Below, piece after piece: positions 337-2,225 of a stretch of 11,941 nucleotides of DNA. Source of the DNA: a virus (taxonomy: Duplodnaviria; Heunggongvirae; Uroviricota; Caudoviricetes); the IMG/VR virus record IMGVR_UViG_2648501400_000008; one strand, written 5' to 3'. Every line of letters begins with the position of its first letter. The first letter of the stretch is position 1. The translations under genes were made by a program, and so were the position numbers. Below the pieces are notes generated by a model. It was given only the letters and a program-made list of their open reading frames with translations, did not search any database and had not been told where the DNA came from.

Positions 337-1932
337 TTATGGCTGAGACTCTGGTTTAGCAATCTCGTTTATAAATTTCTTAGCTACAACAGTCTCATAC
401 TTTCTATAATCATCAAGATATTGAACATCTATATGATTTTCGTAGCGAGCATTAAATTTATTTGCAGCCCCTGTTTTATCATCTTTACGTTCATCCGTTG
501 GTCTGAAAAATTTATGGTAGCGGCGGGGTGATACCCCCTCAAAATCACAAAATATTACTTTGGAAGATTCTTCGTTCTTTGTTATTGCATCATTATGCAG
601 ATCAAGAGCAAGGCTTTTATCAAATGGCTCTATATATACTACTTTTTTTATTCCAGCTGCGACAATATGCCTTGCACAGTTGTGGCAGGGATAGGTTGTC
701 GTAAAAAGAATTTTATCTTTAGTATCGCCGTTTTGTTTTCTAGCCATTGATGTAATGACGTCCATTTCAGCATGAATTGATCTGGAGTACTCCATTACAC
801 TTGATATTTTGCTGTCTTTGTAAATGCCTTCTGCAATATTATCTAATTTGTTTAGAAGTCGTGTTATATTAATATCGGCAACAGTTTGTCCTGCGGAAAT
901 ACCTAATACAGTTCTTACTTCGGTTGATAATATGCTTTTTATACGGTCTTTAATTTTTAGCTTGTTTGCATCATTATAACACTTACCACTTTTGTGAACG
1001 CATCGATGATCGTTATCAAAATCATCACTGCTATACAACCCGCCACCAGCTTTAGGTACGTCGTTCTTACCCACGGCAAGCAAATTCCCTTCATCATCAA
1101 ACAGTGCAGCCCCTACTTGACGTGATAAACAAGCTGATTGTAATGATGTTGAAAAAGCAGCATACATACCTTTCTCGTTAAAAGTTGGTGTTAAACCATT
1201 TTTGCCATGAATAAGACCGAAAAACCGATCAATCTTCTTCTTTAATTCACTTTTTTGGCTGAAGTTATTTTTAATAAAAAAATCTGAATCAAGAATGGTT
1301 TCCCCGGTTCTTTGTCCATACGGATCAGAGGATTTATTATCAATATTGATAATTAAATGAAGGTCGTTCTTTGTCGATTCGTCATCAATGAGATTCTGAA
1401 TTCGGTAATCTAAATCGCGCAAAACTCCTAACAAATAGAAATTATGCTGATATATAACTCTGAATAACTCTATTTCTTCCGGCCTTTTGAATTGATCAAT
1501 GATGAAGACAGTACCTTTATATTCATCATTATTATAATCAATATTATTTTTCTCTGCTGCGATTGCTGTAATAGCAGCTTCTGCAAGCAACTCATTTTTT
1601 TTGTAATGTTTACGAAGTTTATTGGCAATATCCTGGAGTTTTAAATGTCTATTAGCTTGTGTGCTTTCGGATACCTTCAGTGCTGCTGGCTCAAAATATA
1701 ATGGGCTTTCCATAAGCGCACTTATGCGGATGTGTACAACATTATACCCCCATTCTTTGGATATCTCTTCGATAATTTTGTTTATCGTTCTCATGCCACA
1801 TCCAACATATCCACACAATCCAAGATAAATATCTTTTGATTGTCGTGAATTCACAATCTCAAGTGATGATGCCGATGTTGAGCCTTTTTTTTCATTCAGC
1901 TTTTGTGGAGTTTTTTTTGCTGCTTCAGCCAT
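337..1932 (-). CDS. AvcD/DcdV-like defence deaminase: N-terminal P-loop nucleotide-kinase-like domain fused to C-terminal cytidine/dCMP deaminase domain (531 aa)
   Basis: Single 531-aa ORF. The C-terminal half carries the zinc-deaminase signature HAEMDVI ... TYPCHNCARHI (H-A-E and P-C-x-x-C) preceded by a dCMP-deaminase-like segment (ACLSRQVGAALFDDEGNLLAVGKNDVP). The N-terminal part has a degenerate Walker-A-like GYVGCGMRT and an NMP-kinase-like FIIDQFKRPEEIE segment. The gene is visibly more AT-rich than the phage backbone. Family assignment is from motif recognition only. Confidence 0.8.
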   Translation of the reverse strand: MAEAAKKTPQKLNEKKGSTSASSLEIVNSRQSKDIYLGLCGYVGCGMRTINKIIEEISKEWGYNVVHIRISALMESPLYFEPAALKVSESTQANRHLKLQDIANKLRKHYKKNELLAEAAITAIAAEKNNIDYNNDEYKGTVFIIDQFKRPEEIELFRVIYQHNFYLLGVLRDLDYRIQNLIDDESTKNDLHLIINIDNKSSDPYGQRTGETILDSDFFIKNNFSQKSELKKKIDRFFGLIHGKNGLTPTFNEKGMYAAFSTSLQSACLSRQVGAALFDDEGNLLAVGKNDVPKAGGGLYSSDDFDNDHRCVHKSGKCYNDANKLKIKDRIKSILSTEVRTVLGISAGQTVADINITRLLNKLDNIAEGIYKDSKISSVMEYSRSIHAEMDVITSMARKQNGDTKDKILFTTTYPCHNCARHIVAAGIKKVVYIEPFDKSLALDLHNDAITKNEESSKVIFCDFEGVSPRRYHKFFRPTDERKDDKTGAANKFNARYENHIDVQYLDDYRKYETVVAKKFINEIAKPESQP

Positions 1933-1942
1933 TGCTAATTAC

Positions 1943-2128
1943 CTAGTCGAAAACTATATCAGTATTTATTATTTCAAAAAATGCATCAAGAATTTCTTTA
2001 TTTTTCTTTTTACTTTCAAATGAAATGACATTATCTTGATTAAATGTTGTTAATTCAATGCAGATAGAATCAACCTGATCATTGGCGGCGATGCTCGATT
2101 CTATTTCATTAAATGCTATTACATTCAT
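1943..2128 (-). CDS. Small acidic hypothetical ORF (61 aa) immediately upstream of and co-oriented with the deaminase; may instead be non-coding (see findings)
   Basis: ORF on the minus strand ending 10 bp before the deaminase start; the protein is D/E-rich (…NDQVDSICIELTTFNQDNVISFESKKKNKEILDAFFEIINTDIVFD). The ribosome-binding site is weak (GGATAAG-like) and the region is very AT-rich, so coding status is uncertain. Confidence 0.3.
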   Translation of the reverse strand: MNVIAFNEIESSIAANDQVDSICIELTTFNQDNVISFESKKKNKEILDAFFEIINTDIVFD

Positions 2129-2188
2129 TTATCTTATCCAAACATAATAAAAAACCATATGGCCTTTAGTGTACAACAAAACCATACT

Positions 2189-2214
2189 CTTTCCCCTCAT
2201 TTTAGAGGGGGAAG
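2189..2214. other. GC-rich stem-loop at the boundary between phage backbone and AT-rich cargo cassette
   Basis: TCCCCTC (2192-2198) / GAGGGG (2205-2210) stem with ATTTTA loop and a few extra flanking pairs; a T-rich run lies a few nt 3' on the minus strand. Orientation-ambiguous possible terminator. Confidence 0.3.
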
Positions 2215-2225
2215 TGTGGTCCACA

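Follow-up and report, generated by a model that had tools for sequence, protein, structure and literature searches.

Does the AT-rich stretch at the left end of a prophage, at the site where a lambdoid phage normally has its integrase gene (int), encode a genuine anti-phage system, and has this system taken the place of int? The question is raised by a window of 11,941 nucleotides (nt), i.e., the whole stretch of DNA that was analysed, from a tailed phage of the class Caudoviricetes (IMG/VR record IMGVR_UViG_2648501400_000008). A reading of its letters without database searches, here called the sequence-only reading, had proposed that a 531-aa protein encoded there is a kinase-deaminase defence protein of the AvcD/DcdV type, carried on a foreign cassette that replaced or displaced int. 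According to our analysis, positions 185-2470 very probably constitute a horizontally acquired two-gene module of the AvcID, or defensive dCTP-deaminase, type, which occupies the cargo slot between int and the excisionase gene (xis) of a lambdoid (Glaedevirus/cdtI-like) Escherichia coli prophage. Directly supported here are the family membership of the enzyme, its domain folds and its catalytic and P-loop residues, as well as module architecture, mobility and location within the prophage. Its enzymatic activity, trigger and defence phenotype are presumed by analogy with tested relatives. The coordinates of the features are collected in Table 1.

As far as can be judged from its sequence, the 531-aa open reading frame (ORF) is a bona fide anti-phage dCTP deaminase and member of the AvcD family. 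It matches the PADLOC dCTPase model PDLC02373 at 2.1e-164 and the NCBIfam model NF041025 ('anti-phage dCTP deaminase') with 466.5 bits (residues 35-483 on positions 2-437 of the 437 of the model). For this equivalog-level model, the cut-off is 400 bits, and the protein exceeds this full-length family threshold. In Pfam, dCMP_cyt_deam_1 is matched at 7e-15 at residues 252-434, and the N-terminus has no match. Identity over the full length amounts to 61% with AvcD of plasmid p58 of enterotoxigenic E. coli (ETEC) strain H10407, and is 44-47% with the Vibrio AvcD proteins. Defensive dCTP deaminases have been delimited as single proteins of >350 aa that combine a kinase-like N-terminus with a cytidine deaminase C-terminus (Tal et al. 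bioRxiv 10.1101/2021.04.26.441389); both domains are found here within 531 aa, and the gene has the location on a mobile element or in a defence island that is associated with anti-phage dCTP deaminases. The gene call is right but ordinary, as the gene is already known and annotated in E. coli. The identical protein is public in NCBI/UniRef under the name 'anti-phage dCTP deaminase [Escherichia coli]' and is present on 31 contigs. The cargo cassette was found at an identity of at least 95% in 49 of 5,426 complete E. coli genomes, in all of which RefSeq gives the anti-phage dCTP deaminase annotation.

The N-terminus had been described in the sequence-only reading as a degenerate P-loop or nucleoside monophosphate kinase-like domain, and the structural evidence agrees with this description. 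A profile of residues 1-250 matches an archaeal adenylate-kinase-related structure (3lw7/3h0k) at E = 3e-4. The AlphaFold2 model of the domain has a predicted local distance difference test score (pLDDT) of 86.2 and a predicted template modelling score of 0.81, and a Foldseek search with this model retrieved 114 PDB structures at E <= 1e-3, headed by 3lw7 (4e-8) and followed by dephospho-CoA kinases, UMP/CMP kinase and adenylate kinases. The label 'degenerate' is apt, because the P-loop, GCGMRT, lacks the canonical lysine and has Met47 in its place. In the enzyme of E. coli AW1.7, a Cys is located at this position, and the absence of the lysine is family-wide. The kinase-like domain is nevertheless required for defence (Tal et al. 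bioRxiv 10.1101/2021.04.26.441389).

Four motifs mark the protein, i.e., GLCGYVGCGMRT at residue 38, IIDQ at 144, HAEMD at 387 and PCHNC at 415, the last two of which form the complete deaminase core that had been read from the letters. Mutations at the P-loop, Walker-B DQ, HAE and PCxxC positions of family members abolished activity or defence (Tal et al. bioRxiv 10.1101/2021.04.26.441389; Hsueh et al. bioRxiv 10.1101/2021.03.31.437871), and the residues that are essential by this published mutagenesis are invariant or nearly so among 23 diverse homologues. Fully invariant in this set are C40, G41, G44, D146, Q147, H387, A388, E389, P415, C416, H417 and C419. Thus, the zinc-binding and catalytic motif ([H/C]AE ... 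PCxxC) is present as H387-A388-E389 and P415-C416-H417-N418-C419, with the H, A, E, P and both C invariant. In the nucleotide-binding loop, G41, G44 and G46 are conserved, T49 aligns with S52 of Vibrio cholerae, and the invariant D146-Q147 pair provides the Walker-B element. The positions known from mutants are G29/C30 in AW1.7, which by motif register equal G46/M47 of the window protein, and S52 and D162/Q163 in V. cholerae. The V. cholerae protein used for comparison (P0108, 521 aa) is an IS66-truncated allele whose numbering is unlike that of VC0175; direct residue mapping extends to S52 only, and the equivalence with D162/Q163 is based on the motif.

A deaminase core of this kind also occurs in metabolic enzymes. 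It is homologous to that of dCMP deaminases (T4 Cd, 1vq2, at 1.4e-8; human and streptococcal enzymes; the dCMP deaminase families of PHROG), and a 5'-deoxynucleotidase, YfdR, is encoded in the same prophage operon, so that the gene might be considered a metabolic dCMP deaminase of the T4 Cd or ComEB type, which makes dUMP for thymidylate synthesis during lytic growth of the prophage and has no role in defence. Very little credence can be given to this explanation. The similarity to dCMP deaminases spans only ~60 residues around the zinc site (PDB matches at about residues 380-440), and the score with the ComEB model TIGR02571 is 40.6 bits, far from the cut-off of 219.45 for such housekeeping and phage enzymes. 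Moreover, the window protein is three times longer and has the kinase-like domain as an obligatory part, its best homologues are all full-length fusions with defence annotation, the module travels among satellites, plasmids and defence islands independently of phage replication genes, and most relatives of the prophage do not have the deaminase cassette. Neither housekeeping-type best homologues, nor an unrelated N-terminus, nor an unremarkable composition, any of which would have spoken against the sequence-only reading, were encountered.

It is hardly credible at all that the protein is instead a nucleic-acid-editing or polymorphic-toxin deaminase (MafB19, Bd3614 or APOBEC-like) that mutates DNA or RNA and does not deplete nucleotides. 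Residues 378-451 do match the Pfam families MafB19-deam (31.6 bits; cut-off 27), Bd3614-deam, SNAD4 and APOBEC2, but these matches overlap the stronger one to dCMP_cyt_deam_1 of the same clan, and all except that to MafB19-deam are under the cut-off. A secretion or toxin-delivery domain is absent from the protein, and, for the family, dCTP was eliminated without any sign of editing in DNA or RNA sequencing (Tal et al. bioRxiv 10.1101/2021.04.26.441389).

What the defensive dCTP deaminase of the window would do can be deduced from the tested enzymes of ETEC, Vibrio and E. coli AW1.7. AvcD would be made constitutively and be kept inactive by the product of the upstream avcI locus. When a lytic phage shuts off host transcription, the labile avcI inhibitor would decay, and the freed AvcD would deaminate dCTP and dCMP to dUTP and dUMP. 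The resulting collapse of the deoxycytidine (dC) pool would then stall phage DNA replication or lead to defective particles, and the lysogen, and with it the prophage, would be protected from superinfection. The prophage's own induction should not trigger the system, since an induced lambdoid prophage uses host RNA polymerase. ETEC AvcD is one of four homologues that were tested; it lowered dCMP and dCTP and was neutralised by its upstream locus (Hsueh et al. bioRxiv 10.1101/2021.03.31.437871).

Several points weigh against the view that the window carries an AvcID module that works in this manner. Even the closest experimentally tested relative, that of ETEC, is only 61% identical to the window allele. 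True kinase activity is doubtful in view of the P-loop without the lysine. Which phages would be restricted cannot be predicted for the window module, because the range varies among the tested homologues, and T7, which replicates fast, escapes AvcID of Vibrio parahaemolyticus (PMC10511110). Nor do all members of the family have an upstream inhibitor, as an AW1.7 construct with 83 nt upstream and without the small ORF still defended (Tal et al. bioRxiv 10.1101/2021.04.26.441389). Finally, the inhibitor in the ETEC-type branch may be an RNA, a small protein or both.

The second gene of the module was missed in the sequence-only reading. In AvcID systems, avcI (difV) is a small ORF located directly 5' of avcD in the same orientation, which neutralises the deaminase (Hsueh et al. 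bioRxiv 10.1101/2021.03.31.437871), and an ORF of 61 codons takes this position in the window. It ends 10 nt before the ATG of the deaminase gene, with its TAG stop codon within the ribosome-binding site of the latter (TAGGT), the junction reading GAC-TAG-GTAATTAGCA-ATG. The geometry on ETEC plasmid p58 is the same, with an ORF of 186 nt followed by a gap of 12 nt to avcD. The encoded protein is acidic, with 12 Asp and Glu residues against 4 Lys and Arg, and matches phrog_9966 at 1.9e-43. In a collection of 5.8 billion proteins, 23 clusters from about a dozen genera of Enterobacterales were found, all of exactly 61 aa, with 91% column identity and without insertions or deletions.

A survey of 82 loci, consisting of 80 loci at one genome per species, the window and ETEC, revealed that small ORFs are a regular feature of this position (ORF coordinates: window 1943-2128, minus strand; L003 2618-2803; L094 2253-2423; loci L008-L087). 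A same-strand ORF of 45-110 codons that ends no more than 80 nt 5' of the deaminase gene is present in 66% of the loci versus 15% of shuffled upstream sequences. The translations in the ORF frame are mutually similar in 114-148 pairs at E < 1e-3, compared with 9-28 pairs for each of the other five frames and 24 in blastn. The small proteins, of ~55-65 aa, form two families: family A is basic and its members end in L.W, and family B is acidic and its members end in II[FL]D, in both cases directly before the stop codon. Family A comprises 33 loci and includes the 56-aa ORF of V. cholerae, corresponding to the published ORF of 174 nt, which scores 19.3 bits with the family profile, the best of 330 shuffles reaching 8.6 bits. 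Family B, which is PHROG 9966, includes the window and ETEC as well as Budvicia, Morganella, Citrobacter and Dickeya. The window ORF scores 14.0 bits with the profile of family A, a value suggestive of distant kinship between families A and B. In a direct BLASTP comparison, the small ORFs of the window and ETEC show no significant similarity (E = 0.79); their relationship emerges only via intermediates from Citrobacter and Dickeya and via profiles.

Is the product of this locus an RNA or a protein? In V. cholerae, avcI with its start codons changed to stop codons still neutralised AvcD (Hsueh et al. bioRxiv 10.1101/2021.03.31.437871), for which reason it was classed as an RNA (type III) antitoxin. 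In the preprint, the comparison of RNA and peptide concerns V. cholerae only and not the ETEC-type branch (bioRxiv 10.1101/2021.03.31.437871). RNA-level evidence at the small-ORF locus is weak or absent. The predicted RNA fold of positions 1933-2235 has a z-score of -2.87. For six module copies, RNAalifold predicted 93 pairs, a single one of them compensatory, in sequences too alike to judge, and for the 33 ORFs of family A it gave no consensus structure, in a codon-aware alignment that is highly divergent and structure-blind. An Rfam scan of positions 1-3000 revealed no known RNA family for the leader or the avcI region, only two sub-threshold chance matches.

At the codon level, the small ORF shows clear protein-coding selection. 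Among the six module copies, 10, 10 and 22 sites are variable at codon positions 1, 2 and 3, respectively (p = 0.008), and pooling of nine independent pairs gave 140, 104 and 237 differences (p = 4e-13). Several of the compared pairs are gapless, so this third-position periodicity is independent of the alignment. The ratio of nonsynonymous to synonymous substitution rates (dN/dS) is ~0.14-0.37, the value for V. cholerae versus V. parahaemolyticus being 0.37. Because of the frame-specific similarity, the low dN/dS and the excess at third positions, the small ORF looks translated and under purifying selection, a coding signature that is not what a purely non-coding antitoxin predicts. It is compatible with the experiments in V. 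cholerae, since the RNA can suffice while a peptide is also made. An AlphaFold2 prediction for the 61-aa protein with 23 sequences had a pLDDT of 48 and was unusable. To judge from these comparisons, the chances are about even that avcI, the 'RNA antitoxin' locus, in addition genuinely encodes a protein and that AvcID is regulated by this small protein, instead of or together with the RNA (a dual-function RNA). Possible roles of such a peptide are those of a second inhibitor, of a sensor, or of a coupler of translation by which the AvcD level is set. No mention of the avcI ORF as a translated gene was found in the searchable literature, although the final AvcID paper may contain an earlier notice of it. 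If the peptide is made and functional, the assignment of AvcID to the type III toxin-antitoxin class and the model for its activation need revising.

The extent of the cassette follows from composition and from comparison of genomes. Between base 1 and about base 2200, the G+C fraction is 0.31-0.37, compared with 0.43-0.57 for the remaining window, so that the proposal of an AT-rich foreign cassette in a prophage was well founded. Its extent had been put at ~1-2230, which is incorrect at the left, where bases 1-97 form the end of an IS66-family element and bases 98-184 the 3' end of int, and at the right, where genome comparison places the end of the cargo at ~2470: related phages without the cassette (2H10, cdtI, Ayreon and Stx2c phages) match the window only from 2471/2477 rightwards. 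The xis-like gene that follows was correctly recognised. It has weak matches to HTH_17 and excisionase families, and the gene at the homologous position is called excisionase in phages 2H10 and cdtI, which have 94-97% DNA identity to the window.

Table 1. Features of the left part of the window (11,941 nt in total), with positions counted from its first base.
Feature	Position	Strand	Remarks
IS66-family element terminus	1..97		Element runs leftwards beyond the window
3' remnant of the prophage tyrosine integrase gene	98..184	plus	Last 87 nt; 28 codons and stop at 182-184
AT-rich cargo with avcID-type module	185..2470	minus	From int stop codon to xis stop codon
Intrinsic-terminator-like hairpin	299..330	minus	Terminator scan and inverted repeat; 6 nt 3' of the deaminase stop
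avcD-type anti-phage dCTP/dCMP deaminase	337..1932	minus	531 aa; ATG start; ORF real
Zinc cytidine/dCMP deaminase domain	nt 523-1179 (~residues 252-470)	minus	C-terminal part of the deaminase protein
P-loop NMP-kinase-like domain	nt 1198-1845 (~residues 30-245)	minus	N-terminal part of the deaminase protein
Small ORF, positional equivalent of avcI/difV	1943..2128	minus	61 codons, 186 nt; acidic
Conserved structured leader 5' of the small ORF	2135..2235	minus	Nearly invariant across module copies from five genera
Promoter-like site TTTACA-18-TAAAAT	2308..2337	minus	10/12 matches; best site of the scan
Excisionase-like gene	2473..2667	minus	64 aa; prophage backbone, outside the module

Within the cargo, a smaller unit is mobile by itself. 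The leader with its hairpin at 2189-2214, the small ORF, the 10-nt gap, the 531-aa deaminase gene and the terminator recur together at ~85% nucleotide identity in unrelated contexts, the span common to these copies reaching from ~2260-2417 of the window down to 190-289. In Klebsiella, the unit is located at the cargo end of a P4-like satellite with AlpA, DUF5375 and a D5-type primase (loci L088-L090); other copies adjoin GmrSD or BamHI-type restriction-modification genes and an integrase gene (loci L091-L093), and copies were also found in Budvicia and Morganella. By these comparisons, the module moves between different classes of mobile elements. The hairpin at 299-330 is included in the similarity to the copies in other genera and, by the same evidence, is part of the mobile module. 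The sequence-only reading had considered both hairpins as boundaries of the cassette. Both do exist, but the one at 2189-2214 does not mark a boundary: because the span shared by the module copies includes it, it is an internal element of the conserved leader.

The slot in the prophage is variable as well. In phage cdtI, the int-xis slot contains a gene for a 710-aa protein (orf33; locus L007 1763-3895), which is BovA of the Borvo system (PADLOC, 2.3e-241). This BovA is annotated merely as hypothetical. In phage 2H10, the slot encodes an uncharacterised protein of 239 aa (gp29; locus L006 2995-3714), for which Pfam and PADLOC scans gave nothing; perhaps its gene is a defence or moron gene that has escaped recognition. 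Thus, what lies between int and xis differs among these related phages: the gap is a slot for variable cargo, defence genes included.

The second part of the opening question, whether the cassette has replaced or displaced int, must be answered in the negative. Window positions 98-3300 recur at ~99.4% identity in 26 complete E. coli genomes, where an intact gene for a 412-aa tyrosine integrase is located directly left of the deaminase gene, on the plus strand and convergent with it, in a prophage inserted beside yjjG. In the window, the observation that no integrase gene is visible was nearly true, yet the last 28 codons of int and its stop codon remain. This remnant is 99.6% identical to the end of a 1,239-nt coding sequence annotated as 'tyrosine-type recombinase/integrase' in EC28, 1303, GB089 and other strains; its translation ends in ...RKAYQAWWDRVDSILTYTNLGTNRQPIE directly before the stop, and its orientation is convergent with the deaminase gene. 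The similarity to the intact int of EC28 begins only at base 98. Bases 1-97 recur at 100% identity at over 2,000 sites on chromosomes and plasmids of E. coli, annotated as IS66-like element or tnpA, the end of the element, read inwards, being GTAAGCGTAAACTG. The junction, uncertain by 1-2 nt (97-99), is absent from all 5,426 complete E. coli genomes. Thus, int was neither replaced nor displaced, because the insertion of an IS66-family element cut it and the window ends inside this insertion sequence (IS). The loss of int may have locked the prophage in place.

An interrupted int raises the possibility that the cassette is a decaying, non-functional remnant in a crippled prophage. Decay of the module does occur in some hosts. 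The protein cluster of the deaminase contains truncated members of 365-505 aa. In several E. coli lineages from cattle and pigs (OkiPb01701, locus L005; hits H69-H72 and H99-H105), IS421 and IS1A flank or interrupt the cassette, the deaminase has a length of only 462 aa, and the surrounding prophage is rearranged beside idnO. Little credence can be given to this explanation for the window, where, in contrast, both ORFs are intact, the terminator, the leader and the promoter-like site are present, and all catalytic residues are conserved. In addition, the identity of the deaminase with the protein on 31 contigs speaks against decay, and a prophage without int would be fixed in the chromosome together with its defence gene, which would not thereby be inactivated. 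A separate case is found in V. cholerae CP184803.1, where avcD of VSP-1, beside vspR, encodes 521 aa rather than 532 aa (locus L094 2501-4066) and is directly followed by the IS66-family genes TnpB_IS66 and DDE_Tnp_IS66 (4132-6391), which suggests that the 3' end of this avcD was cut by an IS66-family insertion.

The signals around the two genes of the window are consistent with an intact AvcID module. The small ORF and the deaminase gene have a common upstream promoter-like site, no terminator between them, and a terminator after avcD. The latter is a perfect 11-bp inverted repeat (299-309/320-330), extendable to 13 pairs, with the minus-strand tail TGTTTTTATA. The site TTTACA-18-TAAAAT is a candidate promoter of the module; its position and hexamers are roughly conserved in the copies from Budvicia, Klebsiella and Salmonella, and the promoter scan as a whole gave no more sites than shuffled sequence. 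In the leader, a T-rich run (GGTTTTGTTG) comes directly after the G+C-rich hairpin, and the leader is predicted to form a hairpin-containing structure with a long-range closing helix (AACAUGAUGU / AUUAUGUU). The pairs are invariant among the copies and, therefore, provide no evidence of covariation. It may serve as an insulating terminator against read-through from the leftward operon of the prophage or be part of a regulatory RNA. A third gene was considered and rejected: an 88-codon ORF with a TTG start (2226..2492, minus strand), which overlaps the leader and the 3' end of xis, has no family match and is probably no gene, as indels of 1 nt disrupt the frame in the corresponding leader of other genera. 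Further to the right, the prophage backbone encodes a YfdR-type HD-domain 5'-deoxynucleotidase (3640-4203, minus strand), in one leftward operon with the deaminase gene. An interplay of YfdR and a dC-depleting deaminase in the pools of deoxynucleoside monophosphates is conceivable.

On the enzyme itself, these results add nothing new, as the identical protein is named in RefSeq and the mechanism of the family was published in 2021-2023. Their value lies in a cleanly bounded example of a complete AvcID module as prophage cargo, in the recognition of the int-xis gap as a slot in which defence systems are interchangeable (AvcID in the window, Borvo in cdtI), and in an IS66 insertion by which the prophage may have been immobilised with its defence gene still intact.

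The system most similar to that of the window is AvcID of ETEC H10407 plasmid p58 (WP_000951932.1 and the 186-nt ORF WP_000070788.1), tested by Hsueh et al. (bioRxiv 10.1101/2021.03.31.437871; PMC10511110). The deaminases are 61% identical over 531/532 aa and have all motifs in common, and both are preceded by a same-strand ORF of 61 codons that ends 10-12 nt 5' of the deaminase start, with a TAG stop codon inside the ribosome-binding site. Both small proteins are acidic and end in II[FL]D, although they lack direct similarity detectable by BLASTP. The ETEC copy is located on a mobilisable plasmid of 5.8 kb, whereas that of the window is in a prophage. As an inhibitor, ETEC difV is reported to be specific for its cognate enzyme (Hsueh et al. 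bioRxiv 10.1101/2021.03.31.437871), and cross-regulation between the two systems is, therefore, not expected.

AvcID (DcdV/DifV) of V. cholerae El Tor VSP-1 and V. parahaemolyticus likewise consists of a two-domain enzyme, 44-47% identical, and a small upstream ORF, and its mechanism, i.e., decay of a labile inhibitor after transcription shut-off followed by dC depletion, is presumed to be the same. In contrast to the acidic protein of the window, the small Vibrio proteins are basic members of family A; avcD follows the small ORF after ~77 nt instead of 10 nt, and the V. cholerae system is located on a genomic island instead of a prophage. The dCTP deaminases of E. coli AW1.7 (576 aa) and U09 belong to the same family according to the PADLOC and NCBIfam models. 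The AW1.7 enzyme also has a kinase-like N-terminus with a P-loop without lysine (GSGCTT versus GCGMRT in the window) and a zinc deaminase C-terminus, but it represents a divergent branch, whose N-terminus aligns poorly with that of the window protein, and its construct included only 83 nt upstream and no small ORF. The comparison with AW1.7 and U09 covers the first 400 nt of the constructs (Tal et al. Table S5); the upstream fragment of U09 gave a single chance-level match of 34 nt, and nothing meaningful, to the window and the compared loci.

With T4 Cd and bacterial ComEB, the window enzyme shares the zinc-binding HAE...PCxxC catalytic core. These proteins, of ~150-190 aa, have no kinase-like domain and are metabolic, not defence, enzymes. 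The slot of phage cdtI with the Borvo protein BovA resembles that of the window in its surroundings: xis, DUF551, YfdR, YfdQ, YfdP and cI/cro of the backbone are the same, and the insertion is located between a plus-strand int and a minus-strand xis, whereas the cargo gene, its orientation and the defence mechanism are all different.

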